A stretch of DNA of 64,000 bases from the sequence record OR437326.1; one strand, given 5' to 3'. Of the stretch, positions 5,153 through 44,755 are shown one piece after another (the first letter of the stretch is position 1; each line of letters opens with the position of its first letter). A model generated the notes under the pieces. The model had not been told where the DNA came from. It searched no databases and saw only the letters and a list, made by a program, of their open reading frames with translations. Source of the stretch: Escherichia phage iGC_PHA_EC001. Made by a program: the position numbers and the translations under genes.

Positions 5153-5426
5153 AAAATTTCTCCTCTCCTAAAGACATGTTGACATGAAATGCGCGGTATG
5201 TAAATTCGTTGTCCGTTGTGTTAGAATAAAACTCAAATTGAACAACACCATCTTGAGAAGACAGATACATGCCAATTTGAACTGTTCCTTCTGGTACCAG
5301 GTAAGCATACTCTGGGCGTAGTGTTACATTGTAAAAATAAAGTTCCCCAACACCCATTTCATCCCAAGCTTCCCAAGCGGTAACGAAGTTACTTTCAAAA
5401 CTTGTTACTGATCCGAACTCTGCCAT
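5136..5426 (-). CDS. hypothetical protein
   Basis: RBS GAGGAGG; 96 aa. Confidence 0.5.
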   Translation of the reverse strand: MAEFGSVTSFESNFVTAWEAWDEMGVGELYFYNVTLRPEYAYLVPEGTVQIGMYLSSQDGVVQFEFYSNTTDNEFTYRAFHVNMSLGEEKFYDDQV

Positions 5427-12160: not shown

Positions 12161-12661
12161 TTATTTGTAAGCATCTAAAGTTCCAGAAGTCAGAACTTTA
12201 ATTACTCGTTCAGCACGGTTTGGCGTCTGGCTATACCATCGGCTTTTACGCATGTTTTTACCTGCTTGAGTATAATATGCATTGCTGATTAAAGTCAAGC
12301 TATTTTGAAACCCTTCAGCACCTTTTAACCCCAACTGGAAAACCATGTTAATTATTCCCAATTTACGAGTATCACTAACCTTATCATAGATTGGTGATAA
12401 GATAGTACTGTTTTTTATGTCTCTCTTCACTTTTGCAACATCGTCAGCAAAGATTTGACGGGCTTCTTTTTCTGTGATAACTCCATTAGTCTTACGACCA
12501 AGAAGATTATCTAAGATTTGAATAGCCTTTGCTTTATCTTTTATTTTAGTCAGAAGGTGTCCTATGCCGACTGTCCAATAACCAAGATGGTCTTGATAAA
12601 CAGTAAGCTTCAGTCCTTCATCGACTCGTAGCATATCAAACTCATCTACTACTTTAGCCAT
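12161..12661 (-). CDS. T4-type lysozyme (endolysin, glycoside hydrolase family 24)
   Basis: near-colinear similarity to T4 lysozyme: MLRVDEGLKLTVYQDHLGYWTVGIGHLLTK and C-terminal KSRWYSQTPNRAERVIKVLTSGTLDAYK. Confidence 0.85.
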   Translation of the reverse strand: MAKVVDEFDMLRVDEGLKLTVYQDHLGYWTVGIGHLLTKIKDKAKAIQILDNLLGRKTNGVITEKEARQIFADDVAKVKRDIKNSTILSPIYDKVSDTRKLGIINMVFQLGLKGAEGFQNSLTLISNAYYTQAGKNMRKSRWYSQTPNRAERVIKVLTSGTLDAYK

Positions 12662-12823: not shown

Positions 12824-13084
12824 TTACTCCGCAATTTGAGCCATGAGATCACGCAGTTCGGTAAAACCGCCTACGTATGTTACCTCCCCGTTCACTTCAG
12901 ACAGAATTTGTGGAAATGTGCGTGGAGGAACTCCGGTAAGATCAACAACTGTTTTAGTCATTGATTCTAAATCATAGTCTTGATCAAGACTTAAATATTC
13001 AAACTGTTTATTGCGCATGGTTAATAGTTGTTTTGACATTTCGCAAAATTGACAGTTAGGTTTACCAAAAATTACAAATTCCAT
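12824..13084 (-). CDS. glutaredoxin/NrdH-like thiol-disulfide oxidoreductase
   Basis: N-terminal FGKPNCQFC CxxC active-site motif in an 86-aa protein; RBS AAGGAGAGG; start overlaps rmlD stop. Confidence 0.6.
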   Translation of the reverse strand: MEFVIFGKPNCQFCEMSKQLLTMRNKQFEYLSLDQDYDLESMTKTVVDLTGVPPRTFPQILSEVNGEVTYVGGFTELRDLMAQIAE

Positions 13085-13926
13085 TACCTCTCCTTATTAA
13101 GTAATACTGCTAAAGACTGTTCAATACCTTTATTTAAATCTGATTTTGTAAGATAGTGACTGGTTACTAGTTGTGACTTCACCGGACGTGCTGCTGGAGC
13201 ATTATAGGTTGAAGCTGATACCGCCGATATCTTAACAGGTTCTGGCATCTGTGTCAAGATCTTTTCCGCAAACTCCGCCCAAGAAATAAGATGGCTTCCT
13301 GCAAAATGGTAAGTCTTAACAGACCTTGACCAACCTGTTTTTAATACTTCAAAAATAGCTTCTGCTAAATCTGGAGCATATGTTGGACAAGAGAACTGAT
13401 CAGCAACAATAATAAAATCACGTTGTCCATCATTATAGCGAGACAACATGGTTTTTAGAAAGTTATTTCCAAATTCGCTATATACCGAGGCTGTTCGAAT
13501 AATATATGTATTTGGGTTAACTCCTCGCACCATTTTTTCACCAAGTTCTTTCGTATACCCATAATTGTTTATTGGGTTAGGTGTAGTATCTTCAAAAATA
13601 GGATGAGAATAATTAAAAATATAATCTGTAGAAATATGCACAAAATCAATTTTAAGTTTGCTGCACACTGCCGCAATATTTGCAGGTCCATACGCATTAA
13701 CAGCCAAAGCAGTAGCAAAATCATGTTCTGCTTTATCTACAGCCGTATAAGCGGCGCAATTAATAACCCCATCTACATAATCTTCAAGAATAGCGTTTCG
13801 CACAGCTTCAAAATTTGTAATATCTACACGTTCTTTAGGATAAGTTAAAGATACATTTGAAGGAGCCACTTTACGTAAAGCTTGTCCCAGTTGTCCATTA
13901 CCGCCCAATACCAGATATGTTAGCAT
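13084..13926 (-). CDS. rmlD: dTDP-4-dehydrorhamnose reductase (RmlD-like)
   Basis: Rossmann LGGNGQLG; INCAAYTAVDKAE and HISTDYIF match RmlD signature blocks; 280 aa. Confidence 0.8.
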   Translation of the reverse strand: MLTYLVLGGNGQLGQALRKVAPSNVSLTYPKERVDITNFEAVRNAILEDYVDGVINCAAYTAVDKAEHDFATALAVNAYGPANIAAVCSKLKIDFVHISTDYIFNYSHPIFEDTTPNPINNYGYTKELGEKMVRGVNPNTYIIRTASVYSEFGNNFLKTMLSRYNDGQRDFIIVADQFSCPTYAPDLAEAIFEVLKTGWSRSVKTYHFAGSHLISWAEFAEKILTQMPEPVKISAVSASTYNAPAARPVKSQLVTSHYLTKSDLNKGIEQSLAVLLNKER

Positions 13927-14486
13927 ACACCCTCGCTACGTAACTGTTGAAAAGATTTAGCCATTGCATCTTTTGTTGATAAGATAGGTTTAAAACCTTC
14001 GTCAAAAATCATATCGAAGCCCCAATCGATCCCTATGTCAGGATCATCCCAACGTAAACTTTGTTCACTAGAAGGGTCGTATGGAGTTGTGCATTTGTAT
14101 TCAAAGATCGCATCCATACTCAAAACTATAAAACCATGTGCCAAACCAGGAGGAAGCCAAAACTGCGTATGGTGTCGTGCACGAAGAACAACACCGTCCC
14201 AAGCACCGTAAGTTGGACTATCTTTACGTAAATCTACAGCGAAATCCAATACTTCCCCACTTACACAACGAACAAGCTTACCTTGCGGATTATTTGTTTG
14301 AAAGTGCATTCCTCGCAAAACACCGAAGTTTGATTTAGACATATTATCTTGAACGAAAGTTTGTTTACCAATGATATCTTCGTATTTTTGTTCATTGTAT
14401 GTTTCTAAAAAGAAACCACGATCATCTTTATAAACGTCTGGTTTGATAATTACCGCACCTTCAATTTTTGTTTTTTCTACTTTCAT
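13920..14486 (-). CDS. rmlC: dTDP-4-dehydrorhamnose 3,5-epimerase (RmlC-like)
   Basis: DDRGFFLETYN, GVLRGMHFQ, KLVRCVSGEVLDFAVDLRKDSPTYG, PPGLAHGFIVLS align by eye with RmlC/RfbC along whole length. Confidence 0.85.
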   Translation of the reverse strand: MKVEKTKIEGAVIIKPDVYKDDRGFFLETYNEQKYEDIIGKQTFVQDNMSKSNFGVLRGMHFQTNNPQGKLVRCVSGEVLDFAVDLRKDSPTYGAWDGVVLRARHHTQFWLPPGLAHGFIVLSMDAIFEYKCTTPYDPSSEQSLRWDDPDIGIDWGFDMIFDEGFKPILSTKDAMAKSFQQLRSEGVC

Positions 14487-17117: not shown

Positions 17118-19361
17118 CTACATTTTACAGGCACTACACCCTTCGTCTTCAGAATCTTCTTGTGCTAAAGAATCTGCTGATTTTGTTCTACTGTTAAGGT
17201 AATACAATGACTTACCACCCAGTCTAGCAAAGTTCAAAATAAATTTCATCTCTTCTTTAACTGATAAACGTCCCCCTACCAATTTAGAATAATCTAGCCA
17301 AGAATCACAAGAAATTCCTTGGTCCGTAAACTTGGTAAAGATACCATACATTTCTGCAAGATCTTTAGCCGGAGTATCCCAGGCAGACTGGTAAAACATT
17401 TTCAGTTTTTCGTAGTCTGGAACAATAAATAATACACTACCTTTCTGACTTTGTTTATACATAATAGTATCACGAACAGGATACAGAGAGTTAGTAGTAT
17501 TGCTTACCAAACTGCTGGACTCATTAGGTGCAATAGCAGCCAAGACACTGTTACGGATACCACCTTGTTCAATGATTTCAGCACGTAAGCCTTCCCAGTC
17601 CATTTTAAGATCAAAATTACCGATACTATCTACTGTTTTAGCATAAGTGTCAATTGGTAGCCAACCTTGAGGCCATTTGGTCTTATCGATCCATTCTGCA
17701 TTACCTTTTTCCTTAGCCAGACGCAGAGAGGCTTTTGCCAACCAAAAGTAATGACGTTCTGCAAGTTCATGCATTAATTTTTTAGCATAAGCATCTGAAT
17801 AATTTACAAAATTACTTGCCAAGTAATGCGCTAAGTTTGTAATGCCTACACCAATAGATCTACGTGCTTTAGCAGTTATTTCGTTATGTTTAAATGGATA
17901 ATCCATTGTTTCAATAACGTTGTCAATTGTCAATACAGTGTAATATGCAACATCCTCATATTCTTCAGGTAAGACACGACCAGCAACAATAGAAGATAAG
18001 AAGCATAAAGCCAATTCTTGATCTTCTGTATTCTCACCAGTAAAGAGATCCGGCATACTGTGGAAAGCTTTAGTTGGTAAGAAGATCTCTTGACACAGGT
18101 TTGATTGATACACCGTATCCAGGAAAGGTGTATGGTTGTTAACGTTGTCAGCAAAGAACATGTAAATACGTCCTGTTTCTGCACGTTGAACAATAATCTC
18201 TGTCAGAAGATCACGAGCCTTAACAAATTTTTTCTTAATGCGACGACGGCTTACTTTGTCATAAACTGCATCAAACTCTTCTTCACTTTTATACAAAGCT
18301 TCATAAAGTTCAGGAGCATCATCACAACTAACTAACATCCAATCTTCGTTTTTTGCTGCTCGACGCAAGAACGAACGGTTAACAACAATAGAATAATCTA
18401 GTTTGTCTACTCGTTTATCTATAGGTGTTGTTGGATTCTTCAGTCGAATTAGATCGTCGAAGTCTGGTTCAAGTATGGTAAAGGTAACTGTAGCACTACC
18501 TCCACGACTTGCTTGCTTCGAAGCTCCAACACTATCTTCCATCCATTTCAGATACGGAAGAAGACCACCATGAATAATACGATTATTCTTAACACCTTGA
18601 CCTGTGGCACGAGTTTGAAGATTAACACCAATACCTGCGTTATTCAACGTATACTCATGAGCTAAGTAATTAGCAATGGCTAAAGATTCTGCCGTATCGT
18701 CTGCACGGAATAAGCAACAAGACGCACTTCCTTTGATTGGAGTTCGTAGAGTTGTCAGATACGGCGATGGCAGATTAATCTTAAGATCGCTAACATAAGT
18801 ATAAAGTTTTTTAATATCTTCTATACGGCGTTCTTTTGGTTGGATCTCCATAACCTTCATTGCGATACCAATGAAAAGAAACTGTGGAGACTCATGCACC
18901 ACATCGTTTACTGCATCTCGAATAAGATATTTATCTACCATCTGACGTAAAACAGAATAACCATAAGTTAGATTTTTATTATGCTTTACAATCTTACCGA
19001 TTTCTTTGATCTCTTCATCAGTATAATCCATTTTATCCCAATGTCCACGTTCTACCATATCATGATAAAAGGTATTCAGTGAAGGGATACTGTGGTATCC
19101 CCCATGAGCCTGTTTGTAAATCATACCCAGAAGAAGTCTTCCTGCCATATCACTGTAAGCTTGTGTTTTCTTGTCAATACACGCTGCAATCATTGCTTTA
19201 TGCAGATCACGTGTAGACACACCGTCATAACACCGCTTCACAGCTTCTAATTCAATTTCAGACCAGTTTAGTTTACCTGCTGCAAATTCAGACCACTTGC
19301 GAAGTTTTTCTGGATTAAACTCCTCTGTCTTACCGTTAGATTTAGTTACAAAACGAATCAA
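17118..19361 (-). CDS. nrdA: ribonucleotide reductase class Ia large (alpha) subunit
   Basis: 747 aa; N-terminal ATP-cone-like region, conserved Cys-containing blocks and C-terminal Cys pair (CSACKM); TTG start after GGGAGGAG RBS. Confidence 0.9.
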   Translation of the reverse strand: MIRFVTKSNGKTEEFNPEKLRKWSEFAAGKLNWSEIELEAVKRCYDGVSTRDLHKAMIAACIDKKTQAYSDMAGRLLLGMIYKQAHGGYHSIPSLNTFYHDMVERGHWDKMDYTDEEIKEIGKIVKHNKNLTYGYSVLRQMVDKYLIRDAVNDVVHESPQFLFIGIAMKVMEIQPKERRIEDIKKLYTYVSDLKINLPSPYLTTLRTPIKGSASCCLFRADDTAESLAIANYLAHEYTLNNAGIGVNLQTRATGQGVKNNRIIHGGLLPYLKWMEDSVGASKQASRGGSATVTFTILEPDFDDLIRLKNPTTPIDKRVDKLDYSIVVNRSFLRRAAKNEDWMLVSCDDAPELYEALYKSEEEFDAVYDKVSRRRIKKKFVKARDLLTEIIVQRAETGRIYMFFADNVNNHTPFLDTVYQSNLCQEIFLPTKAFHSMPDLFTGENTEDQELALCFLSSIVAGRVLPEEYEDVAYYTVLTIDNVIETMDYPFKHNEITAKARRSIGVGITNLAHYLASNFVNYSDAYAKKLMHELAERHYFWLAKASLRLAKEKGNAEWIDKTKWPQGWLPIDTYAKTVDSIGNFDLKMDWEGLRAEIIEQGGIRNSVLAAIAPNESSSLVSNTTNSLYPVRDTIMYKQSQKGSVLFIVPDYEKLKMFYQSAWDTPAKDLAEMYGIFTKFTDQGISCDSWLDYSKLVGGRLSVKEEMKFILNFARLGGKSLYYLNSRTKSADSLAQEDSEDEGCSACKM

Positions 19362-23241: not shown

Positions 23242-24201
23242 TTAGATTCCAATAATAGTTGCTGCTCGTTTATCTTTGGATCTGGTGTTTGCTCTACTAC
23301 GTGACAAACCTCCACAAGATTCACAACGAATGATATCGAAAGAACTTACCGCAGTGTGGTATTGCTTACCAGTAACAACGTGAACATGATCACTGCCGCA
23401 ACGAGAACAACGGACTTTCTCATCTGGGTAATAAGCGGATAAGTTAGGATGCTGTGGAATCCACGGAAGGATTTTCATATACAAATCACGGAGTGAAACA
23501 ACATCGCCATCATTGTAAATCTGCATACGTTCAAAAGCATCACGATCACCTTCACAACATGCTTTCCATAAAGGGAACCCCTCGTTATCCAGTTTTTCAC
23601 TTTCTGTTTCGAAATATGCTCCCATTTCTTTAAGGGAGTTGGAAGGAAGTGCAAATTGTTTCTTAGCTGCCTTCAATGTATCAACAACTACATAATTAGA
23701 AGGAGGAGCCATATCGTGATATGCAAATCGTTGGTTAATGTATGCACGGTCAAACTTATACCCGTTGTGTGCCACAACTACATCTGCCTCGTTCAGAAGG
23801 TTCCAAAGATCTTGGCAAAGCTCCCAATCATCTGTATGATCAATATCAAAAAGAGGATAAGAAGACAAGTTCTTACCTTCTACTTCACCTGTATACAAAT
23901 CAGCAGAAGAGTAAGATAACAAATAACCCCTACGAATTACCTGGTCTGGAGAAATGAAGGCTTTGAATCGACGGAAAGTATATGCAATCTCTGGTGCAGT
24001 TTCAACATCAATAATTTTAATAACTGGTTGTTTCTTTTTAACTGGCTCTTGTTTACTTGCACCGAAACGTGCAAGGAAATCATTTACTGTGCTTTTTCTT
24101 GTTGGACTACCTAAAACAATTGCTGCAATATTACGAGAAGACATACCCTCTGCACTCATACTAAGGATATCTGCTTTCTGCTCTTCTGTTAATCTGCTCA
24201 C
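23242..24201 (-). CDS. DnaQ-like (DEDD) 3'-5' exonuclease with N-terminal HTH and C-terminal Cys-rich zinc-binding region
   Basis: Exo I IIDVETAP, Exo II HNGYKFD, Exo III YNDGD; C-terminal CSRCGS...CESCGG; GTG start after AGGAGG RBS. Confidence 0.55.
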   Translation of the reverse strand: MSRLTEEQKADILSMSAEGMSSRNIAAIVLGSPTRKSTVNDFLARFGASKQEPVKKKQPVIKIIDVETAPEIAYTFRRFKAFISPDQVIRRGYLLSYSSADLYTGEVEGKNLSSYPLFDIDHTDDWELCQDLWNLLNEADVVVAHNGYKFDRAYINQRFAYHDMAPPSNYVVVDTLKAAKKQFALPSNSLKEMGAYFETESEKLDNEGFPLWKACCEGDRDAFERMQIYNDGDVVSLRDLYMKILPWIPQHPNLSAYYPDEKVRCSRCGSDHVHVVTGKQYHTAVSSFDIIRCESCGGLSRSRANTRSKDKRAATIIGI

Positions 24202-25316
24202 TCTGCCTCCTGTTGTGAGATGTATGACTGAAGCATACTCTCAAATGTTGTATCGTCATTATCCCAGCGTTTCATGTATACCAACTGGAAAATTGTTTCT
24301 ATCCATTCATCTGTTGTCATATGGACTTCTTCTCCATCCCAAGAAGTAAAATTAACACCATCTGGGAACCATGAGTAGTAAGTATCTTTAACTGTTTGGA
24401 AAAGTTCTGCTTGAGTTTTACAAGCTGAAAGAAGATTAAAACAAGTAATATCTCCGAACTTAATATCAAAATCTTGATAAGGTCGGATACTATCTGTTTT
24501 ATCCCCCATTAGCATCTGATATGCTAACCAGTAACTGCCCCAACCTTTAACTTCTTTCTTTTTACCTTTATCTACGATCCATATATCGCCAATAGACTCG
24601 TCAATAAGAATTATATCTGGATTTTTAAATACTCCATCCTCTTTGTAGAAATTAAAAAGGATACTAGGAGTATGTAAACTATCTTTATCTATAGACACTA
24701 CGATATAAGAAAATTTACCCGTCCTTTTATAATCTTTATAACCTTGGAAACCATACTTCTCTAACTCATCATCAGCTTCTATTACAGTAACAACATCACC
24801 ATTGTGGAACTCCACAAGATAATCTTTGGTTTCTGAAAGCTGAAGTGGTTTGATATCTAATCGTTCAGATTTATATTCTACAGGCATTTTGAAGGCGTGT
24901 CTGAAAGTTTTTCCTACGCCAATAACTCCGCAATATTTTTCTAAACGTAGATGTTTTAGAATACCTAAGACTTTTGTTTTAGCTGCTTGGAAGGTGTGTC
25001 CGATATCTTCTGGCGGGTATTGCTTATCAATGATTTCGAACTCTTCCTTTGTGAAGGGACGTTTGTTTTTGGAGGCTCTTTCTGCATTTGTATCTCCTAG
25101 CCAACCTCCAATTTTAGTCTTGCTTTTACCCCAAAACTCTGTCTTATTTTTAAATTCCTTTTGAGCACCTGAAGGGATGTGCTTCGCAATGATTGTTCTT
25201 TTCTCTAACGCAGATGCTGCTTGGAAAGCGATCTGATCATAATCAATTGCAGCTATTGTTTCTTCGTTGACATATAAATGAAGATCTTCAGGTTTAATTA
25301 AAATATAACCGCTAAT
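24198..25316 (-). CDS. FEN-family 5'-3' exonuclease / flap endonuclease (T4 RNase H, T5 D15-like); start codon unresolved
   Basis: EADD, DESIGD and LMGDKTDSIRPY blocks match FEN signature; reading frame is open for 147 codons upstream of first ATG (24887) with no ATG/GTG/TTG; candidate ATT start at 25314-25316 after GGGGGA. Confidence 0.5.
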   Translation of the reverse strand: MSGYILIKPEDLHLYVNEETIAAIDYDQIAFQAASALEKRTIIAKHIPSGAQKEFKNKTEFWGKSKTKIGGWLGDTNAERASKNKRPFTKEEFEIIDKQYPPEDIGHTFQAAKTKVLGILKHLRLEKYCGVIGVGKTFRHAFKMPVEYKSERLDIKPLQLSETKDYLVEFHNGDVVTVIEADDELEKYGFQGYKDYKRTGKFSYIVVSIDKDSLHTPSILFNFYKEDGVFKNPDIILIDESIGDIWIVDKGKKKEVKGWGSYWLAYQMLMGDKTDSIRPYQDFDIKFGDITCFNLLSACKTQAELFQTVKDTYYSWFPDGVNFTSWDGEEVHMTTDEWIETIFQLVYMKRWDNDDTTFESMLQSYISQQEAE

Positions 25317-27280: not shown

Positions 27281-27463
27281 TTATTTAAAATAGCTTTCTA
27301 GAAAGTTGCTAATATTTACTACAGTCTCACCCATGTAAATTCCTGCGAAACCGAAAACAAGCATACGTGGAATATTGAAATACCATTTATCTGCCGGAAA
27401 AGATGCCAGAATTACAATAGCAATTGCTATCAACATCATAAGAATTGTTGCTAAAATTATCAT
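27281..27463 (-). CDS. small membrane protein
   Basis: start at MIILATILMMLIAIAIVILASF (hydrophobic helix) after CTGGAGG RBS. Confidence 0.4.
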   Translation of the reverse strand: MIILATILMMLIAIAIVILASFPADKWYFNIPRMLVFGFAGIYMGETVVNISNFLESYFK

Positions 27464-29050: not shown

Positions 29051-29377
29051 TTAAGCATTCAGTTCGTTGTTGAGTTCGTAAATCTCTTCTTGAAGAGAAT
29101 CGATCTCTTCCTCCAAACGGGAGATCTCTTCTTTTAGATATACCATTTCAGATTCTTTCTCTTCTAACTCATTTTCAAATTTTACTTTATTCGCCTCATT
29201 TTCATAATGGAGTTCAGCATAATCATCGCGCATTTGTTCAATAAGATGAATCAGAGACAAGATGTAATTATCTCCCGTTTCATCACGCCACTCTTCACCG
29301 TGGCGGAGAATGGTAATTCGTCCAGTATCTTCATCTAAAATTGTCTCATATTTACGATCATCTGTATAAATCTGCAT
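29051..29377 (-). CDS. hypothetical coiled-coil protein
   Basis: heptad-like EISRLEEEIDSLQEEIYELNNEL; RBS AAGGAGAAATA. Confidence 0.45.
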   Translation of the reverse strand: MQIYTDDRKYETILDEDTGRITILRHGEEWRDETGDNYILSLIHLIEQMRDDYAELHYENEANKVKFENELEEKESEMVYLKEEISRLEEEIDSLQEEIYELNNELNA

Positions 29378-35901: not shown

Positions 35902-35976
35902 GGCCCTGTAGCTCAATGGGAGAGCTGTCGGCTCATAACCGATAGGTAGCTGGATCGAAACCAGCCAGGGCCACCA
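35902..35976 (+). tRNA. tRNA-Met (anticodon CAT; could alternatively be Ile2/lysidine)
   Basis: acceptor GGCCCTG/CAGGGCC, D-arm TAGCTCAATGGGAGAGC, anticodon loop CTCATAA, T-arm GCTGGATCGAAACCAGC, encoded CCA. Confidence 0.7.
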
Positions 35977-35978
35977 AA

Positions 35979-36053
35979 GTCTTTATGGTGTAATGGATAG
36001 CACAGGAGTCTTCTAAACTCTTAGTCAAGGTTCGATTCCTTGTAAAGACACCA
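35979..36053 (+). tRNA. tRNA-Arg (anticodon TCT)
   Basis: acceptor GTCTTTA/TAAAGAC, anticodon loop CTTCTAA, T-arm CAAGGTTCGATTCCTTG, CCA encoded. Confidence 0.7.
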
Positions 36054-36249
36054 GAACATTTTAACATGAATTAGCTCAAGTGATTTGAACCCACTACTGA
36101 TCATGGTGGCAGAGAATGAGGCAAGTATGTCAGACATTATAAACAAAGGCCACGGTTATATTAGAAGACATAAATGCTCGAAGAGCACCGTTCGTGGAGA
36201 ACGGGGGTTGGTGGAGTCACCATTCATGGTAAAATGTTTTAAAAAACTA

Positions 36250-36280
36250 TTGACAACAAACATTATTTTATGTTAGATTA
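36250..36280 (+). promoter_or_regulatory. sigma70-like promoter (AACTATTGACAA family, copy 2)
   Basis: TTGACA at 36250-36255, TAGATT 18 nt downstream, immediately upstream of tRNA-Ser. Confidence 0.45.
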
Positions 36281-36287
36281 TAAGTAT

Positions 36288-36378
36288 GGAAGGGCAAATC
36301 GATGTGGCGACGAAAACGGTCTTGAAAACCGCCGAGCTTGAAAGAGCCTTGGGAGTTCGACTCTCCCTCCTTCCGCCA
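36288..36378 (+). tRNA. tRNA-Ser (anticodon TGA), type II with long variable arm
   Basis: acceptor GGAAGGG/TCCTTCC, anticodon arm CGGTCTTGAAAACCG, T-arm GGGAGTTCGACTCTCCC, CCA. Confidence 0.65.
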
Positions 36379-36383
36379 GATTA

Positions 36384-36469
36384 GGTAGATTGGTGAAATG
36401 GTAGCCACGACAGTTTGCTAAACTGTAGTCGGAAACGGCGTGTAGGTTCGAGTCCTACATCTACCGCCA
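36384..36469 (+). tRNA. tRNA-Ser (anticodon GCT), type II
   Basis: acceptor GGTAGAT/ATCTACC, anticodon arm ACAGTTTGCTAAACTGT, T-arm GTAGGTTCGAGTCCTAC, CCA. Confidence 0.65.
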
Positions 36470-36599
36470 AGTTCTTTTTAATGTAGCTTACTTTAGCAGA
36501 GTAAATCTTCGGCAAGTGGCGGTAACCACTTTACCGATACCTCATAGTTAGTGGTCTGAACACTGGCTATTTTAAAAAGAATTTAAATATTAGTATTTA

Positions 36600-36687
36600 G
36601 GTGAGTTAATTCCGTAGGGGTAGCGGGGCAGACTGTAAATCTGTTATCATTGCGATTCGGGTGGTTCGACTCCATCACTCACCACCA
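36600..36687 (+). tRNA. tRNA-Tyr (anticodon GTA), type II
   Basis: acceptor GGTGAGT/ACTCACC, anticodon arm GCAGACTGTAAATCTGT (near identical to E. coli tRNA-Tyr), T-arm GGTGGTTCGACTCCATC, CCA. Confidence 0.65.
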
Positions 36688-36693
36688 AATTAA

Positions 36694-36779
36694 GATGAGT
36701 TGGCTGAATGGTTTAAGCGGCGGACTGTTAATCCGTGTTCGAAAGAACAATATAGGTTCGAATCCTATACTCATCGCCA
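36694..36779 (+). tRNA. tRNA with anticodon GTT (Asn by anticodon) but atypical long variable arm
   Basis: acceptor GATGAGT/ACTCATC, anticodon stem-loop GCGGA-CTGTTAA-TCCGT at positions 27-43, extra hairpin GTTCGAAAGAAC, T-arm ATAGGTTCGAATCCTAT, CCA. Confidence 0.45.
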
Positions 36780-36786
36780 GAATTAT

Positions 36787-36862
36787 GGACTTGTAGAGTT
36801 AAGGTAAACCCCAGTAGCCAAGAGGCTTCTGGAATTGCAGGTATCGAATCCTGCCGAGTCCC
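36787..36862 (+). ncRNA. tRNA-like element without canonical anticodon arm (possible pseudo-tRNA or small RNA)
   Basis: acceptor pairing GGACTTG/CGAGTCC and T-arm-like GCAGGTATCGAATCCTGC, but central region folds as CCAG-T-AGCC-AAGA-GGCT-T-CTGG hairpin. Confidence 0.3.
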
Positions 36863-36868
36863 AGCTTT

Positions 36869-36943
36869 GCTCCTATAGTATAATGGCTATTACAACGGTT
36901 TTGTAATCCGTGGATCTCTGTTCGATTCAGAGTGGGAGCACCA
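36869..36943 (+). tRNA. tRNA-Thr (anticodon TGT)
   Basis: acceptor GCTCCTA/TGGGAGC, anticodon loop TTTGTAA, T-arm CTCTGTTCGATTCAGAG, CCA. Confidence 0.7.
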
Positions 36944-37211
36944 ACACAACATTAAGGGCACTGTGATTGATCGTCGTATCCTGTGCACAAGGTCTGTTCG
37001 AAAGACAGTGTTCTTAGTATTGTGTTGATCACAAAAAGAGTCACCTGAAACTTGACCGGAGTAGGGTTGGATGGGGTAAAGAAGAAGCGGATTCTCCCAT
37101 CGACGTGATAGTTTTCCAGTGTTGCAAGCGACACCCAGGAGGTTAATCACAACCGAACGTAGGGCTAGTCACCCAAAGGGATACTCGTCACTGTCCCACT
37201 CAATAAAACTA

Positions 37212-37242
37212 TTGACAACCAATAGTAAAATGTAGTATAGTA
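37212..37242 (+). promoter_or_regulatory. sigma70-like promoter (AACTATTGACAA family, copy 3)
   Basis: TTGACA at 37212-37217, TATAGT 18 nt downstream, upstream of tRNA-Gly. Confidence 0.45.
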
Positions 37243-37252
37243 AATATGTAGG

Positions 37253-37326
37253 GCGTTCTTGGTGTAGCGGTAGCATTCCGTCCTTCCAAGTCGGCGGCAC
37301 GAGTTCGATCCTCGTAGAACGCTCCA
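37253..37326 (+). tRNA. tRNA-Gly (anticodon TCC)
   Basis: acceptor GCGTTCT/AGAACGC, anticodon loop CTTCCAA, T-arm ACGAGTTCGATCCTCGT, CCA. Confidence 0.65.
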
Positions 37327-37424
37327 AATTATTTAATAAAGGGTTGCCAGAAAACTTTCTCTTTTACTCATGGTTTTCTCCTTCTCTCACACTTCTTCTG
37401 GTTGCCCTTCATTAAATGATTTAT

Positions 37425-37500
37425 TGGTTTGTAGTGTAGTCAGGTAGCACACGACACTTTGACTGTCGTAGGTTTGGTTCAAATCCAGACAGACCAGCCA
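37425..37500 (+). tRNA. tRNA-Gln (anticodon TTG)
   Basis: acceptor TGGTTTG/CAGACCA, anticodon arm CGACACTTTGACTGTCG, T-arm TTTGGTTCAAATCCAGA, CCA. Confidence 0.7.
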
Positions 37501-37505
37501 TATAA

Positions 37506-37582
37506 CGGAATTTAGCTCAGTTTGGTAGAGCATACGCTTTGGGAGCGTAGGGTCGCAGGTTCGAATCCTGCAATTCCGACCA
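37506..37582 (+). tRNA. tRNA-Pro (anticodon TGG)
   Basis: acceptor CGGAATT/AATTCCG, D-arm GCTCAGTTTGGTAGAGC, anticodon arm TACGCTTTGGGAGCGTA, T-arm GCAGGTTCGAATCCTGC, CCA. Confidence 0.75.
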
Positions 37583-37588
37583 ATTTAA

Positions 37589-37662
37589 TGTTTCGTAGTT
37601 CAATGGTAGAACCCACGACTGATAATCGTGAGATACAAGTTCGATTCTTGTCGAAACAACCA
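37589..37662 (+). tRNA. tRNA-Ile (anticodon GAT)
   Basis: acceptor TGTTTCG/CGAAACA, anticodon arm CACGACTGATAATCGTG, T-arm ACAAGTTCGATTCTTGT, CCA. Confidence 0.75.
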
Positions 37663-37664
37663 GT

Positions 37665-37734
37665 TTCCCGTTAGACTTACAGGATAAGAGTTCCACAACT
37701 TATTGTGATGCTGGTTCGAATCCAGCACGGGATA
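37665..37734 (+). ncRNA. tRNA-like element, anticodon not assignable
   Basis: acceptor TTCCCGT/ACGGGAT (1:72 mismatch) and canonical T-arm GCTGGTTCGAATCCAGC, but no 5-bp/7-nt anticodon stem-loop could be folded (CACAA-CTTA-TTGTG tetraloop hairpin instead); no encoded CCA. Confidence 0.3.
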
Positions 37735-37740
37735 CCTAAT

Positions 37741-37819
37741 AGCGGGATAGAGGAGTCTGGTCGTCCTCGCCAGTTTCATATGCTGGAGATCATCGGTTCA
37801 AATCCGATTCCCGCCTCCA
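37741..37819 (+). tRNA. tRNA-Met-like (anticodon CAT) with unpaired 1:72 and TTCAAAT T-loop (possible initiator-type)
   Basis: acceptor AGCGGGA/TCCCGCC (A1 x C72), anticodon arm CCAGT-TTCATAT-GCTGG, T-arm ATCGGTTCAAATCCGAT, CCA. Confidence 0.5.
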
Positions 37820-37934
37820 AATATCGCTTGCCAGCGGTATCTTTGAAGACCTTGCCTGGTTCCTTCTAAGATGGAGGGGTGCGACTCCTTAACGCACAAT
37901 TATAATAAAGCATTTCAAATTAACAGTGTTTATT

Positions 37935-37957
37935 AGCCTCCTTATTGGAGGCTTTTT
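37935..37957 (+). terminator. rho-independent terminator at end of tRNA cluster
   Basis: AGCCTCC TTATT GGAGGCT hairpin followed by TTTTT. Confidence 0.7.
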
Positions 37958-37976
37958 GCTATCTATTGAATAAAAC

Positions 37977-38005
37977 TTGACTTATTATTTTTTATATGTT
38001 AAGAT
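37977..38005 (+). promoter_or_regulatory. sigma70-like promoter
   Basis: TTGACT - 17 nt - TAAGAT, upstream of RBS AGGAGG of gene 38027. Confidence 0.45.
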
Positions 38006-38026
38006 AAAGTTTAGGAGGATTTTATT

Positions 38027-38323
38027 ATGCCTAAACTAAAACGTGGTCGTGGAAGACCAACAGCCGAAATGCAACAGATTTACGCAATGGATGCGGCGCA
38101 AGCAAGTGTAAAAGAATTATTTGCAGAGCATTATTTAGAAGCTATGCGGTATATTGTTGAACTTGTTAATGATAAGGATGCAGCAAAACCTCTCCGCTTC
38201 CAAGCAGCTAAAGCTATTAAAGAGCAAGTAGAAGAATGGTTAGAAGAACATTATGAAGCTATGGAAGAAGAAACCCCTGCCGTGCAGAATACAGATGACG
38301 TTCCTAAAAAGATCGTAATCTAA
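38027..38323 (+). CDS. hypothetical protein (possible DNA-binding protein / small terminase subunit candidate)
   Basis: 98 aa, basic N-terminus MPKLKRGRGRPT, acidic C-terminus; first gene of rightward module; function is inference. Confidence 0.45.
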   Translation: MPKLKRGRGRPTAEMQQIYAMDAAQASVKELFAEHYLEAMRYIVELVNDKDAAKPLRFQAAKAIKEQVEEWLEEHYEAMEEETPAVQNTDDVPKKIVI

Positions 38324-38338
38324 TCCCTCTCCTCTCTT

Positions 38339-38405
38339 GGGGCTTTGCCCCTCCTCCTTGTTATTTTTAACACCCCTCTCCGAAAGGTTAGGGGCTTTTT
38401 TATTT
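38339..38405 (+). terminator. tandem GC hairpins with T-runs (terminator region)
   Basis: GGGGCTTTGCCCC at 38339-38351 and CCCCTCTCCGAAAGGTTAGGGG followed by CTTTTTTATTTTT. Confidence 0.6.
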
Positions 38406-38412
38406 TTAATGC

Positions 38413-38442
38413 TTGCAATTATATATCATTTTGTGATAAGAT
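38413..38442 (+). promoter_or_regulatory. sigma70-like promoter
   Basis: TTGCAA - 18 nt - TAAGAT. Confidence 0.4.
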
Positions 38443-38463
38443 CAGATATGAGGAGGATAAAAT

Positions 38464-38619
38464 ATGCGCAATTTTGTAGTTAAAAATGATTTTAACCGTT
38501 CTTCTTATCATAAAGATAAAAAGAATGATTACACACGGGCTTGGAACTTGGAGGAAGAACTTTATGATGACAGAGAAGACTTGGGAAGAGATCCTAGCGG
38601 AGGCTCAACCAATGGAAGT
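38464..38619 (+). CDS. hypothetical small protein (51 aa)
   Basis: strong RBS GAGGAGGATAAAAT before ATG; overlapping alternative small ORFs (38486-38701 in track; 38564-38701 with RBS GGAGGAAG) make this region ambiguous. Confidence 0.35.
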
Positions 38620-38684
38620 GAAGAAGATAGTTAACAACACCCCTTCTCTTCCTAAAATAAAATTTTATGAGGAAGTAGAAGATA

Positions 38685-39077
38685 ATGAATCTAAAGACTA
38701 AAACTGTATTGAGTTTTGTTTTAATTGTTGTTCTTATTCTTGCCGGAATGTTTGCTTATAACAAGATACGTGAGTCTGGCTACAAAGATGGTGTTGCCTA
38801 TCAAACGCAAGTATATCAAACAGCCCAAGCAAAAGCAAAACAAGATTTTGATGTTCTTCAAAAAAGAGCAGATGAAGAAAGAGCATTATTAAATACTCAA
38901 ATAAACAACTTGTCTAAAAACAATGCACAATTAAAAGCAGATTTAGAGAAGAAGAAACAAACGATCAATGAGGATACAACGAATTATGCAAAAACTAATT
39001 CTGGCAGTATGTCTTGCTTTGCCCCTAATGATGACGGGTTGTTCATCATCAACAAAAGTTTCCCCAGTTCTTATTGA
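38685..39077 (+). CDS. i-spanin (Rz-like inner-membrane spanin)
   Basis: N-terminal TM helix VLSFVLIVVLILAGMFAY, then coiled-coil-rich periplasmic domain; o-spanin gene is embedded in its 3' end in another frame. Confidence 0.55.
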   Translation: MNLKTKTVLSFVLIVVLILAGMFAYNKIRESGYKDGVAYQTQVYQTAQAKAKQDFDVLQKRADEERALLNTQINNLSKNNAQLKADLEKKKQTINEDTTNYAKTNSGSMSCFAPNDDGLFIINKSFPSSY

Positions 39078-39312
39078 TGAGTGTAAGGCTGTAGCCATAG
39101 AAAAGGTTAAAGGTCCAGATTCGGACTTGATGGATAAAGTATCGACACCTGTGCCATACACTAAAAATCAAATTGCAAAAGGGGTTAGTAGATCTGAAGT
39201 TGTTAACAACCAAACTCAAAACAATGCTCTTTGGGAGCAAGATAGACGAAAGGTTCTAGGTTTACAAACATATATTAAAACACTGCAAGAAAAAGGTATT
39301 ATTGCTGAATAA
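38986..39312 (+). CDS. o-spanin (Rz1-like outer-membrane lipoprotein), overlapping i-spanin
   Basis: start set at MQKLILAVCLALPLMMTGCSSS (signal peptide plus lipobox-like MTGC); track ORF 38968-39312; classic overlapping spanin architecture. Confidence 0.55.
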   Translation: MQKLILAVCLALPLMMTGCSSSTKVSPVLIDECKAVAIEKVKGPDSDLMDKVSTPVPYTKNQIAKGVSRSEVVNNQTQNNALWEQDRRKVLGLQTYIKTLQEKGIIAE

Positions 39313-39321
39313 GGAGGGAAT

Positions 39322-41397
39322 GTGGCAAAGAAAAAGGCAGCAGGTAGTTTAGCTGGAGTAGATATTGAAGTAAAGGCTCAACCAGGTAAACAGACTCTTG
39401 CAATGGATTTAATGCCAGAAGTTATGATTTATGGTGGTGCCGCTGGATGTGTTTCTGCTGAAACGGAATATCTTACAAAAGATGGTTGGAGGCAGATTAG
39501 TGAATATTCGGGAGAGGATATTTACCAATACAATCCTAAGAATAAGCGTTTAGAATTGGTAACACCTTATTTTGTAGAATACGATTTAAATGGAGATAAC
39601 CTATACAGAATAACAAATGGTGTAGGATTATTCCAAGAACTTAGTATGGAACACCGTTTTGTATTCTATAAGAAAAAGAAATCAAAGAAACATTTCGAGA
39701 TTCTTGTAGGAGATCTTATTGCATTACAGCAAATAGGAAAACCCCTGCAAGGTTATGTAGAAAATCCATTCGGTAAACGTGTTCCTTTTAACATACCTGG
39801 TAAAAAGAGCACTTACTTAAAAATACACGAGGTTATTTCAACAGATGATAAGAAATATTGTTTTGAGACTCCAAGCAGCTATATTGTCTTTAGACGTGGC
39901 GATCACTGCTTCGTTACTGGGAATAGCGGCAAGTCTCGTCTGCTATTGCTGAAAGCTTTAAAATACGCCTACAAAGACCCTTTGTTTGGTGGAATACTTT
40001 TCCGTAAGAACACCACTGCTCACCGTAAACCAGGTGGTCTGTTTACAGAAGCAAAACGTTTGTATCTTCCTTTACAACCACACGTAAAAGAAAGTACAAT
40101 GGATATCATTTTTGAAGCCACTGGTGGTGGAACCCTCAAATTTGACCATTTGGAAAATGATAACGTAACAGCAGAAACAAACCATCAGGGTACACAGTAT
40201 TCAATGGTAGGTTTTGACGAGTTAACCCACTTCACACAATATGAAATGCTCTATCTTCTGGGACGTATGCGTTCAGAGTCAGAAACAAGTTTCATGTTGT
40301 GCACATGTAACCCTGACGCAGATAGTTGGGTTTTGAATTGGGTGTTACCTTATCTTGATGAGGGTGGTTATCCTAGAGAAGATATGTGTGGTAAACAAAA
40401 ATATTTCATCATTGTTAACGATGAACCTGTTTTTGCTGACACACCTGAAGAACTGAAAGAAAAATATCCAGAAAACTGTTTCATGGAAAACCCTAATACA
40501 GGGGAGACAGTTGTTATTGAACCACAAACTTTCGTATTTATTGGTGGGACAATATTTGATAACCCAGAACTCATTAGGCTTAACCCTAATTACTTAGCAC
40601 AGCTTAAATCACAAACAGCTATCAAAAGAGCACAGCTTCTGGACGGTTGTTGGTTTGCACGTATCCAGAAAGAATCTTTCTTTCAACGTGAATGGTTACA
40701 TAAAATATCTTATAAAGATGTTCCTAACAATCTTAAACTAATGCGAGCATGGGATAAAGCTGTTTCAGTTCCTACAGAAACTTACCGTTATCCAGACTAT
40801 ACAACATCTGTCAAAATGGGTAAAGATCAAGATGGTAATATCTACATCTTTGGCGACTATGATTATGATGCTGTGGATGAGAAAAGTAAAATTTTCGGAA
40901 GGTTTCGAAGACTACCTGGGGAAAGGGATAACCTGATTCTAAATCAATGTAAGATTGATGGACCAGAAGTTACAGTAGTGCTTCCTAAAGACCCATCTGG
41001 TGCTGGGACAATAGAATACACAGAGTCTGCAAAGAAACTTATTCTAGAAGGTTTTGTTGTTAAACCAGATGCTATGCCAGGTAACAAGAAAAAGCTTCAG
41101 CGTTTTATGCCTTTTAGTAGTGCGTGTCAAAACGGTTTTGTTTATATTGTTGAAGATTCTTTCCCTAATGTGGAAACTTTAACCCACTTTTATAAAGAAT
41201 TGGAATCTTTCAATGGTGAAAGATCTACAGCCACTATTAAAGATGACATTCCCGATGCTGCTGCCTCTTGTTTTAATACTCTGTCAAAAGAGAATACTTT
41301 CAAAGCAGTAGCTATCCCTACAACAACAAATGCTCCTACAGGATACAGTAGAATGAACAGCGGATTTCACCAACCGTATAGTGTCCGTAAAAGATAA
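39322..41397 (+). CDS. terL: terminase large subunit, interrupted by a mini-intein in the Walker A motif
   Basis: Walker A GGAAG/SGKS split by the insertion; Walker B MVGFDELTHF; C-terminal nuclease-type acidic motifs LPKDPSGAG and IKDDIPDAAA; 691 aa. Confidence 0.8.
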   Translation: MAKKKAAGSLAGVDIEVKAQPGKQTLAMDLMPEVMIYGGAAGCVSAETEYLTKDGWRQISEYSGEDIYQYNPKNKRLELVTPYFVEYDLNGDNLYRITNGVGLFQELSMEHRFVFYKKKKSKKHFEILVGDLIALQQIGKPLQGYVENPFGKRVPFNIPGKKSTYLKIHEVISTDDKKYCFETPSSYIVFRRGDHCFVTGNSGKSRLLLLKALKYAYKDPLFGGILFRKNTTAHRKPGGLFTEAKRLYLPLQPHVKESTMDIIFEATGGGTLKFDHLENDNVTAETNHQGTQYSMVGFDELTHFTQYEMLYLLGRMRSESETSFMLCTCNPDADSWVLNWVLPYLDEGGYPREDMCGKQKYFIIVNDEPVFADTPEELKEKYPENCFMENPNTGETVVIEPQTFVFIGGTIFDNPELIRLNPNYLAQLKSQTAIKRAQLLDGCWFARIQKESFFQREWLHKISYKDVPNNLKLMRAWDKAVSVPTETYRYPDYTTSVKMGKDQDGNIYIFGDYDYDAVDEKSKIFGRFRRLPGERDNLILNQCKIDGPEVTVVLPKDPSGAGTIEYTESAKKLILEGFVVKPDAMPGNKKKLQRFMPFSSACQNGFVYIVEDSFPNVETLTHFYKELESFNGERSTATIKDDIPDAAASCFNTLSKENTFKAVAIPTTTNAPTGYSRMNSGFHQPYSVRKR
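39448..39924 (+). mobile_element. mini-intein (about 159 aa, Hint domain only) inserted in terL P-loop
   Basis: begins with Cys (CVSAETEY) right after GGAAG; ends ...HCFVTGN followed by +1 Ser (SGKS); excision reconstitutes GGAAGSGKS; TxxH-like block SMEHRF; no endonuclease-sized insert. Confidence 0.65.
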
Positions 41398-41400
41398 TTG

Positions 41401-41429
41401 TTGACAAAAGTCACTTTAAAGTGTATTAT
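41401..41429 (+). promoter_or_regulatory. sigma70-like promoter
   Basis: TTGACA - 17 nt - TATTAT upstream of portal gene. Confidence 0.5.
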
Positions 41430-43639: not shown

Positions 43640-44755
43640 GTGGCAAATACATATTTAACTAATGTAGACTTTTCTGGAAAAGCTACGGAAGAGTCACTAG
43701 GTGCTCATATTGCTTACACTTTTGATTTTCAAGGTGGAGCGGCATCTGGTTATAATACCCCCCTTTTATTTAAGTCAGACGGATCTCCAGACATAACTTT
43801 TGAAAAGTTAGAAGCTCTCACTAAAATGGGAGAAGATGTTACAGAGTTACGTAAAAGCTATATTCAACAAGTGATGGATCGCATTTCTGAAAAAGTGCGT
43901 GAAAAATTTGAAGCTGGTTGGGATTGGGTTTACGTTATTGATGCTGACTTCGATGCGAACGTTGCAATTTTCTGTTCAGATAACGGTATGTTCTCTGTTG
44001 GCTTTAAAGTTGACGGACTGAATGTTGAAGTTGAAGAGGTTGCTAAACCTGTTGTTCGTGTTACTGATTATCAAGTTGTTGATGGTGATGTAATGATCTC
44101 CATTGATTTCTTTGAGGACGTTTTAGACGATGCTTTGAGTAATCTCGTTAAGAGTTCCTTGAAACAAAGTCAAGTTAAAGATTATTTAGTGAAAGCTCAC
44201 GCTAAAGCTAATACAAACTCTGTGGATGCAGAGGCTAACCCCGCAGGTGATAAATCTGCAAACACAACTGGAATCAATAAAGGAGAAACCCCTTTGGAAA
44301 ATATCAACAAAGAAGAATTCCTGAAATCTGCTGAATTCCAAGAACTGATGAAAGCACAGATCGCTGAAGCTGTAGAAAAAGCAGCCGCAGATGCACGTGC
44401 AGCCGCAGAACTTGAAGCACAGGAAAAAATCGCTAAGGCAGAACAGGAAGCAGAAGAACTTCGTAAAGCTGAACAAGCTCGTATCGAAGAAGAATATACA
44501 ACTGTTGTTAAATCCTATTCTTTCGTAGAAGAAGACAAAGTTGAAGCTCTCGTTAAATATCTGGTAGACAATAAAGATATCGCTGAAACTATCGTCAAAG
44601 CATTCGAAAAAGCACGTGCAGAAGTGGACGCAGTTAAGAAAGAATTTGGAACAGAACGTGGTGTTGACGTGATCAATACTCAACCTGTAGCTAAATCTTC
44701 TTCTGAACTGATTAGTCAGAAAGCTGCTGAACTTAAAAAAGCCCAGAAACAATAA
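43640..44755 (+). CDS. scaffolding protein
   Basis: position before decoration and capsid genes; C-terminal Ala/Glu/Lys-rich coiled coil (AAELEAQEKIAKAEQEAEELRKAEQ); GTG start. Confidence 0.55.
   Translation: MANTYLTNVDFSGKATEESLGAHIAYTFDFQGGAASGYNTPLLFKSDGSPDITFEKLEALTKMGEDVTELRKSYIQQVMDRISEKVREKFEAGWDWVYVIDADFDANVAIFCSDNGMFSVGFKVDGLNVEVEEVAKPVVRVTDYQVVDGDVMISIDFFEDVLDDALSNLVKSSLKQSQVKDYLVKAHAKANTNSVDAEANPAGDKSANTTGINKGETPLENINKEEFLKSAEFQELMKAQIAEAVEKAAADARAAAELEAQEKIAKAEQEAEELRKAEQARIEEEYTTVVKSYSFVEEDKVEALVKYLVDNKDIAETIVKAFEKARAEVDAVKKEFGTERGVDVINTQPVAKSSSELISQKAAELKKAQKQ

Follow-up and report, generated by a model that had tools for sequence, protein, structure and literature searches.

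The region immediately upstream of the large terminase gene in this phage very probably encodes a two-component spanin whose genes are arranged in the overlapped architecture. It lies within a 64,000-nt stretch of DNA, referred to below as the window, which comes from a Phapecoctavirus, a phAPEC8-like E. coli myophage of the subfamily Stephanstirmvirinae. Across the whole of bases 37900-41400, the window shows 99.7% identity to Mt1B1_P17, nieznany, ESCO37 and other phages. Two adjacent genes make up the pair, one for a putative inner-membrane component (i-spanin) and one, beginning inside the first and read in the +1 frame, for a putative outer-membrane lipoprotein (o-spanin). The predicted features of the pair are as follows.

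38685..39077, plus strand: i-spanin gene, 130 aa (ORF; phrog_4297 match)
38703..38759, plus strand: i-spanin transmembrane helix codons, aa 7-25, TVLSFVLIVVLILAGMFAY (Kyte-Doolittle)
38986..39312, plus strand: o-spanin gene, +1 frame, 108-aa precursor and 90-aa mature lipoprotein (ORF; phrog_1267 match)
38986..39042, plus strand: signal peptidase II signal with lipobox M-T-G-C, Cys19 codon at 39040-39042 (pattern and hydropathy)
38986..39077, plus strand: dual-coding overlap, with i-spanin aa 101-130 and stop in frame 0 and the o-spanin signal peptide and 12 mature residues in +1

Predicted properties of the two proteins

The i-spanin has a sole strongly hydrophobic segment, N-terminal and covering aa 7-25 (Kyte-Doolittle 19-residue maximum mean 2.57), and its periplasmic domain is mostly helical. 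In a single-sequence AlphaFold2 model (mean pLDDT 82.8), residues 3-104 form one unbroken helix, with pLDDT above 90 over approximately aa 11-100 and low confidence in the tail, aa 105-130. A coiled coil is predicted at aa 42-106 of the phAPEC8 i-spanin, which is one residue away from that of the window (PMC6139136). The protein is thus predicted to be a type II inner-membrane protein with an N-terminal transmembrane domain, a periplasmic helix of about 80 residues and a conserved, non-helical 26-residue tail, the tail being the part encoded within the overlap. It has a single Cys, C111.

The o-spanin, read from ATG 38986, opens MQKLILAVCLALPLMMTGC. Its precursor N-terminus consists of a short basic N-region and a hydrophobic core followed by the lipobox, MQKLILAVCLALPLMMTG/CSS, and was judged to be a lipoprotein signal by pattern and hydropathy. 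Position +2 is occupied by Ser and not by Asp, so the product would lack an inner-membrane retention signal and be destined for the outer membrane. The lipobox shows a minor deviation from the consensus [LVI][ASTVI][GAS]C in that position -3 is Met instead of L, V or I; relatives have I or V there. Mature o-spanin is 90 aa long with only 4 Pro, has one further Cys beyond the lipobox (C33, mature residue 15) and ends in a conserved C-terminal region, which has been predicted to be helical (Kongari et al., PMC6139136).

As a chance control, a strict lipoprotein-signal pattern was run against 940 candidate starts in six frames of the 64-kb window and against 20 shuffles. Two loci among the 940 candidate starts in the window matched, the o-spanin being one; the other, at 23954-24349 on the plus strand, runs antisense to a pair of long ORFs on the minus strand. 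The twenty shuffled windows gave 0-1 matches each.

Two in-frame start codons are available to the o-spanin. Sequence comparison favors ATG 38986, because in alignments it coincides with the initial Met of the o-spanins of phi92, FKP3, Tr1 and phiWec179 and because it is preceded by GAGGA at 38970-38974, at a rather long spacing of 11 nt. Initiation at the upstream ATG 38968 would give a 114-aa precursor (ORF 38968-39312) and leave the mature product unchanged; the equivalent of this ATG, with a 110-nt overlap, was the start chosen by Kongari et al. (PMC6139136).

Assignment of the pair as a spanin

Both proteins are matched over nearly their whole length by profiles named 'Rz-like spanin': phrog_4297 matches the i-spanin with an E-value of 4.9e-35 over residues 1-128 of 130, and phrog_1267 matches the o-spanin with an E-value of 1.3e-20 over residues 1-107 of 108. 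Full-length similarity to the SpaninDB 'phi92' families was found as well. No Pfam family scored above threshold for either protein, and a search for Pfam Rz/Rz1 gave no match even at E-values up to 0.1, the only hits being sub-threshold coiled-coil matches. The P2 LysB model TIGR03495 (NCBIfam, as annotated in phage SKA64) gave 16.7 bits and an E-value of 0.0068, below its cutoff of 92.75. Because neither the Pfam thresholds nor that of TIGR03495 were reached, the functional class rests on the PHROG profiles, topology and architecture. Each protein has exactly one periplasmic Cys, C111 in the i-spanin and C33 in the o-spanin, and the aligned columns are invariant across relatives; at least one periplasmic Cys for intermolecular disulfides is present in 507 of 528 spanin pairs (Kongari 2018). 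All the properties of a two-component spanin, as set out in Summer 2007 and Kongari 2018, that can be looked for in a sequence were found in this pair, and this is its predicted functional class.

The pair is not new to the literature. In Table S1 of Kongari et al. 2018 (PMC6139136), phAPEC8_00145/gp121 and phAPEC8_00146 are entered as an overlapped ("ovl") OIS/OOS pair, and SpaninDB, from the same study, places phi92 and phAPEC8 together in one i-spanin family and one o-spanin family. The window o-spanin is identical in amino acid sequence to phAPEC8_00146 (PMC6139136 sequence), and the window i-spanin differs from phAPEC8_00145 by one residue, T46 here and A in phAPEC8. The spanin pair, its family, its architecture, its place beside the terminase gene and the absence of a recognizable holin are already on record. 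A tblastn search found the pair in approximately 135 phage records, belonging to Phapecoctavirus, phi92-like Justusliebigvirus and some Klebsiella, Citrobacter, Serratia and Pseudomonas phages, and i-spanin and o-spanin labels appear in the annotation of the relatives BASEL Bas61, SF1-1 and BME3. Our literature search found no experimental reports on the phi92/phAPEC8 spanin family with respect to complementation of lambda Rz/Rz1, lipidation or lysis phenotype.

By analogy with lambda Rz/Rz1 and T4 PseT.3/PseT.2, a mechanism can be proposed for the pair. The N-terminal helix of the i-spanin would anchor the protein in the inner membrane, with its helix of about 80 residues projecting into the periplasm, while the o-spanin would carry a lipid at Cys19 and end up in the inner leaflet of the outer membrane. 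The two proteins may bind each other through their C-terminal regions, giving a complex that spans the periplasm through the peptidoglycan, and disulfide bonds may lock the homodimers. Once the peptidoglycan had been removed by endolysin, the complex would collapse and the inner and outer membranes would fuse, releasing the progeny.

Besides the family models that fell short of their cutoffs, it speaks against a spanin that the pair adjoins no endolysin or holin and that position -3 of the lipobox is Met. A membrane protein and a lipoprotein might instead form a couple with a role other than lysis, such as superinfection exclusion, receptor masking of the Cor/Llp type or a packaging-associated envelope function, which would agree with a location beside the terminase gene and outside any lysis cassette; the spanin assignment of the phi92/phAPEC8 family, moreover, is itself one made from sequence. 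We consider such a role very improbable, however, since the locus carries the exact signature of a spanin, namely a type II transmembrane domain with a long helix, an overlapping +1 gene for an outer-membrane lipoprotein and conserved periplasmic Cys residues. Its products match spanin families at the profile level and include a motif common to rV5 o-spanins, and the annotation of the near-identical complete genome of Mt1B1_P17 contains no further spanin candidate. A position beside the terminase gene is also no obstacle to a spanin, as spanins are described there for rV5, PVP-SE1, CB7 and podoviruses such as SP6.

The spanin assignment agrees with the first-pass annotation. That annotation had described a 130-residue protein with an N-terminal transmembrane helix and a coiled-coil periplasmic region, and in another frame at its 3' end a lipoprotein-like ORF. 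The hydropathy maximum, the AlphaFold2 helix and the coiled coil of the phAPEC8 homologue bear out the first description, and the +1 frame, the lipobox with Cys19 and the Ser at +2 bear out the second. A lipobox and a transmembrane helix, on whose presence it had made the reading depend, were looked for and both are there. Its naming of the two products as i-spanin and o-spanin is upheld by topology, PHROG homology, conservation, dual coding and the phAPEC8 entry in SpaninDB.

Dual coding and overlapped architecture

To the window we compared the loci of phi92, Pseudomonas PsgM04F, Klebsiella FKP3 and FBKp34, Citrobacter Tr1 and phiWec179, giving seven sequences in all. All six diverged relatives retain the N-terminal hydrophobic segment of the i-spanin (Kyte-Doolittle 1.84-2.76) and a +1-frame overlap of 92-110 nt. 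The lipobox of their o-spanins is MTGC, ITGC or VSGC, and the residue at +2 is S, A, T or N and never D.

Five of the six relatives are 80-88% identical to the window in DNA sequence within the overlap, compared to 43-65% in the i-spanin-only part and 63-69% in the o-spanin-only part. Third codon positions follow the same pattern. Across the seven sequences, none of 71 third positions is invariant in the i-only periplasmic region and only 4/79 are invariant in the o-only region, where positions 1 and 2 of the o frame are invariant at 25-30/78. Within the overlap, 13/31 third positions are invariant in the i frame and 7/30 in the o frame. The raised identity and the lost wobble relaxation in the overlap show that both frames are constrained in the shared 92 nt, which is the pattern expected of a dual-coding signature.

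These comparisons also bear on whether the lipoprotein is made at all. Several GenBank records omit the lipoprotein ORF or give a truncated version starting from MMTGC, and GAGGA stands rather far from ATG 38986, as would suit an ORF that is fortuitous or untranslated, with the 130-aa membrane protein as the only real product. That reading is hardly credible, since the ORF is intact and has a lipobox in all of the diverged relatives, wobble outside the overlap follows the o frame, the ORF matches phrog_1267, and the o-spanin is more conserved than the i-spanin (67% versus 51% identity to the phi92 pair). Missed and mis-started o-spanins are a known gene-caller artifact, with 196 missing and 64 given wrong starts among 528 pairs (PMC6139136).

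Counted from ATG 38986 the o-spanin ORF shares 92 nt with the i-spanin gene, and counted from 38968 it shares 110 nt; in either case it continues past the i-spanin stop at 39077 to its own stop at 39312. Under the definitions in PMC6139136 the gene architecture is overlapped, in the +1 frame. An embedded, lambda Rz/Rz1-type pair, as the first-pass annotation had it, has in its favor that the lipoprotein ORF starts within the i-spanin gene in another frame, but it has practically no chance of being correct and is ruled out by the coordinates, as the o-spanin ORF is not wholly contained in the i-spanin ORF and ends 235 nt beyond it, the published class is 'ovl' and Pfam Rz/Rz1 is not matched.

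The biological weight of the pair is small, as it is a catalogued family member whose architecture and genomic position were both known. In practice it is of use for annotation: the o-spanin has been left out of many GenBank records of these E. coli phages, which are therapeutic candidates, and in other records its start is placed at MMTGC, with loss of the signal peptide. In one rV5-like record, the o-spanin is labeled as a terminase fragment.

Genomic context of the spanin genes

The spanin genes are flanked by the following features.

35902-37819: cluster of ten tRNA genes
37935-37967: predicted terminator
38027-38323: 98-aa ORF, function unassigned, phrog_3330
38373..38404, plus strand: predicted intrinsic terminator closing the unit of the 98-aa ORF, upstream of the spanin/TerL unit (from sequence)
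38464..38634, plus strand: conserved 56-aa ORF, phrog_15229, no transmembrane domain, first gene of the predicted spanin/TerL unit (syntenic in relatives)
39322..41397, plus strand: large terminase (TerL), GTG start, 9 nt after the o-spanin stop (phrog_979, 1.4e-216; PF03237, 5e-17)

The 56-aa ORF, the spanin genes and TerL make up a small predicted unit that heads the packaging and head genes, and TerL is probably co-transcribed with the spanins. Predicted terminators flank the unit, sigma-70-like promoter matches lie ahead of it, and a further sigma-70-like match, TTGACA-17-TATTAT at 41401-41429, lies before the portal gene; the consensus promoter and terminator scans gave results close to shuffle expectation. 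In MZ726793, a rho-independent terminator is annotated at the equivalent of 38373..38404 and another terminator after TerL. The literature searches, which were made for other terms, turned up no passage on the timing of spanin transcription.

The order of tRNA genes, ORFs of about 98 and 56 aa, i-spanin and o-spanin, TerL and portal is kept in phi92, PsgM04F, FKP3, Tr1 and phiWec179, and in FBKp34 the spanins and TerL are separated by a tRNA cluster. In the rV5-like phage ime, an i-spanin and a separated o-spanin gene directly precede TerL. Placement of the spanins directly upstream of TerL is documented, and it is conserved in phi92-like and rV5-like phages.

Two further readings in this region were discarded or found no match. 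An 'RpoS' label on the 98-aa ORF was rejected, its NCBIfam score of 15.5 bits being under the cutoff of 378.7. An intein-like insertion in TerL gave negative results in sequence searches of Pfam and PDB, and a single-sequence AlphaFold2 model had a pLDDT of 37.7. A direct alignment with the TerL of an rV5-like phage was informative on the insertion, and a tblastn search with a spliced extein as query gave no information across the junction.

Endolysin and holin candidates

The following genes of the window were considered as lysis partners of the spanin pair.

12161..12661, minus strand: T4-type lysozyme, 166 aa, no signal or transmembrane domain (PF00959, 5e-11)
27281-27463, minus strand: small membrane protein, 60 aa, phrog_19851, with two hydrophobic segments, one found by a numerical screen and one by eye

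The lysozyme is a full-length homologue of T4 lysozyme, matching PDB T4 lysozyme chains at approximately 1e-48 (residues 7-166 against 3-162), and its Glu15, Asp24 and Thr30 are what we take to be the counterparts of the T4 catalytic residues. Its gene is located between PhoH-like and glutaredoxin genes in a nucleotide-metabolism/replication block, on the opposite strand to the spanins and 26 kb away from them, and a homologue is annotated as 'endolysin' in BASEL phage Bas61. This lysozyme is probably the soluble endolysin partner of the spanins.

A second muralytic candidate of this phage type, proposed from sequence, is a SleB-like hydrolase. The protein is encoded outside the window in the near-identical Mt1B1_P17, where its gene adjoins glycosyltransferase genes, and it has a Hydrolase_2 domain (PF07486, 1.9e-17), similarity to SleB in the PDB (3.6e-7) and a signal- or SAR-like N terminus, MLIKNFVTVALLSLTAFTFTPVVAKA/EA.

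No holin is annotated in Mt1B1_P17 or Bas61. We screened all ORFs of the window and of Mt1B1_P17 by hydropathy and compared the best small-membrane-protein candidates with PHROG and Pfam; the candidates fell only in PHROGs of 'unknown function', none adjoined a lysis gene and none belonged to a known holin family. Besides the protein at 27281-27463, the holin candidates include homologues of Mt1B1_P17 gp082 and the ORFs at 18476-18664 and 135272-135481. That the holin cannot be recognized by homology in such phages has also been reported by others. Three further possibilities were rejected: a 49-aa ORF beside the lysozyme gene, which is highly basic and has no transmembrane domain; a 'hol-like chemotaxis' protein at 29051-29377 on the minus strand, which is coiled-coil and was not flagged by the transmembrane screen of the window; and three small ORFs after the SleB-like gene, which were not flagged by the transmembrane screen of the genome.

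The layout of lysis genes given in the first-pass annotation can largely be kept. It had placed the spanins next to the terminase gene, where TerL indeed begins at 39322, and had noted a T4-type lysozyme about 26 kb away on the opposite strand, which the PF00959 and PDB matches support. Its use of the lysozyme as the endolysin is right in that the protein is a real homologue but incomplete, as the SleB-like protein of Mt1B1_P17, which lies outside the stretch that this annotation covered, makes it not the sole muralytic candidate. The statement that no holin was identified stands as far as known holin families are concerned, but several small proteins with two transmembrane domains exist, such as that at 27281-27463 on the minus strand. 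Its suggestion that lysis functions may be split between early and late transcription units is neither supported nor contradicted by the sequence.

Dispersed lysis genes together with spanins beside the terminase gene are not unusual, and are documented for rV5, PVP-SE1, CB7, T4-like phages and some podoviruses. Lysis genes are unclustered in T4-like genomes (Kongari et al., PMC6139136), and in CB7, rV5 and PVP-SE1, as in some podoviruses, the spanin genes adjoin that of the large terminase, at a distance from the endolysin gene (Buttimer et al., PMC7344957). Given the link between the spanins and the terminase unit and the absence of a recognizable holin, it can be asked whether phages of the rV5/phi92/phAPEC8 supergroup time lysis without a canonical holin-endolysin-spanin cassette, spanin supply being coupled to the expression of packaging genes; we regard this as unlikely. 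Such a route might use a new type of holin, for example the conserved 60-aa protein with two transmembrane domains at 27281-27463 on the minus strand, or it might be independent of a holin and proceed via the signal-bearing SleB-like hydrolase of relatives. The identity of the holin in rV5-, phi92- and phAPEC8-like phages is a question acknowledged in the literature, to which the spanin locus gives no answer.

Comparison with known spanin systems

Lambda Rz/Rz1, the embedded prototype, resembles the window pair in functional class, predicted topology and the periplasmic Cys for homodimer disulfides. It differs in being embedded where the pair described here is overlapped, and the window proteins have no Pfam match. 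The modeled i-spanin is a continuous helix with a tail, whereas lambda Rz has two helices with a hinge, and the o-spanin, with its 90 aa and 4 Pro, is unlike lambda Rz1, a 40-aa proline-rich peptide. In size and in its predicted C-terminal helix, the window o-spanin is closer to T4 PseT.2 than to lambda Rz1.

T7 genes 18.5/18.7 are flanked by the terminase genes 18 and 19 and are far from gene 3.5, which encodes the lysozyme; this is an embedded pair whose terminase-side location is like that of the window pair. P2 LysB/LysC, the prototype of the overlapped class, has the same arrangement as the pair in the window, with an o-spanin gene that begins inside the i-spanin gene, is read in the +1 frame and runs on past the i-spanin stop, and the predicted topology is alike. 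There is no significant sequence relationship between the two pairs, TIGR03495 being below cutoff. LysB/LysC belong to a lysis cassette that also includes holin and endolysin genes, whereas the window pair is outside any lysis cassette.

Unlike the overlapped pair described here, those of the rV5 type are classed as 'separated' and overlap by 4 nt. The C-terminal motif DRxK..LQxYIxTL is common to the window o-spanin and the rV5-family o-spanin (pairwise E-value 3e-5), and similarity between the two is confined to this 29-residue motif. The spanin genes of rV5, PVP-SE1 and CB7 are directly beside the large terminase gene and far from the endolysin gene, as in the window. Closest of all are the phi92 and phAPEC8 pairs, which have the overlapped architecture and the position upstream of TerL seen in the window and differ from the window pair in nothing substantive.

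An interruption in the large terminase gene

The large terminase subunit (TerL; window 39322-41397, + strand) encoded just downstream of the spanin genes carries a 159-residue insertion (Cys43 to Asn201; window 39448-39924, + strand) that falls exactly within the Walker A loop. The sequence around it reads YGGAAG/CVSAETEY...FVTGN/SGKSRLLL, with slashes marking its ends, whereas in the 515-residue TerL of the rV5-like phage ime the same stretch is uninterrupted, GGAAGSGKSFLL. The TerL of the diverged relative phi92 has the same insertion. Its ends are intein-like in that the first residue is Cys, the last is Asn and the next is Ser. Because Pfam and PDB sequence searches with the insertion returned no match, and because its single-sequence AF2 model (pLDDT 37.7) was too low in confidence to use, it is solely these boundaries that suggest a candidate mini-intein.

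In Klebsiella phage FKP3 (locus 2839-5327), the TerL gene 3’ of the spanin genes is annotated as two coding sequences with an HNH endonuclease gene in between. This arrangement suggests an intron-type interruption, distinct from the insertion in the window's TerL. The TerL of phage LL12 is also disrupted by an intron, according to a published report.

Annotation of the o-spanin gene in public records

The o-spanin gene (window 38986-39312) is annotated inconsistently across public records. It is not annotated in NC_052662, and in OM386659, MZ726793 and OM362897 the start is placed at MMTGC (window 39028), with the result that the signal peptide is lost. The BASEL record MZ501063 truncates the protein at the equivalent position, as back-calculated from the phi92 ORF, and in the Vequintavirus ime the o-spanin carries the label “putative large terminase subunit”.

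The only further window ORF with a lipoprotein-signal pattern (MKALNRRKVYAISGAVSTSIILITGC...) lies at 23954-24349 on the + strand. Since two long ORFs (23242-24201 and 24198-24887) run antisense to it on the minus strand, it is probably a chance ORF.

Muralytic enzymes, a holin-like protein and neighbouring genes

Besides the T4-type lysozyme gene (12161-12661, - strand), three loci stand out, the last of them as its neighbour:

43823-44344 of Mt1B1_P17, outside the window: SleB-like Hydrolase_2 protein of 173 residues whose N terminus resembles a signal or SAR sequence
27281-27463, - strand: 60-residue protein with two hydrophobic segments (MIILATILMMLIAIAIVILASF...MLVFGFAGIYMG); phrog_19851, function unknown
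13084-14486, - strand: dTDP-4-dehydrorhamnose reductase-like and 3,5-epimerase-like genes, adjoining the glutaredoxin and lysozyme genes

Among PDB entries the lysozyme matched 7rgr best, “Artificial protein L056” (E 1e-71), residues 1-71 of which are identical to the natural phage enzyme. The SleB-like protein is a second muralytic candidate, encoded by genomes near-identical to the window; in Mt1B1_P17 its gene adjoins glycosyltransferase genes. Its presence matters for deciding which of the two enzymes acts as the endolysin, and whether these phages need a canonical holin at all.

The 60-residue protein, which is 62-65% identical across phi92-like phages and whose gene is flanked by DNA ligase and pyrophosphohydrolase genes, has a class II holin-like topology, which is its sole link to lysis. 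At the position equivalent to 13084-14486, the BASEL relative Bas61 has a complete dTDP-rhamnose pathway (4/4 genes).

The region upstream of the spanin and TerL genes

Two features lie 5’ of the spanin/TerL unit:

35902-37819, + strand: ten tRNA genes (Met, Arg, Ser, Asn, Thr, Gly, Gln, Pro, Ile, Met)
38027-38323, + strand: ORF of 98 residues, its N terminus basic (MPKLKRGRGRPT...) and the remainder acidic and helical

The tRNA cluster is directly 5’ of the packaging/spanin region, and a terminator-like hairpin (37935-37953) comes after it. The 98-residue ORF stands alone between two predicted terminators, just 5’ of the spanin/TerL unit. The label “RNA polymerase sigma factor RpoS” given to this ORF in phage SKA64 was rejected, as it scored 15.5 bits against a cutoff of 378.7. 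The placement of the ORF with respect to the spanin genes and TerL may recall that of gene 18 of T7, the small terminase.
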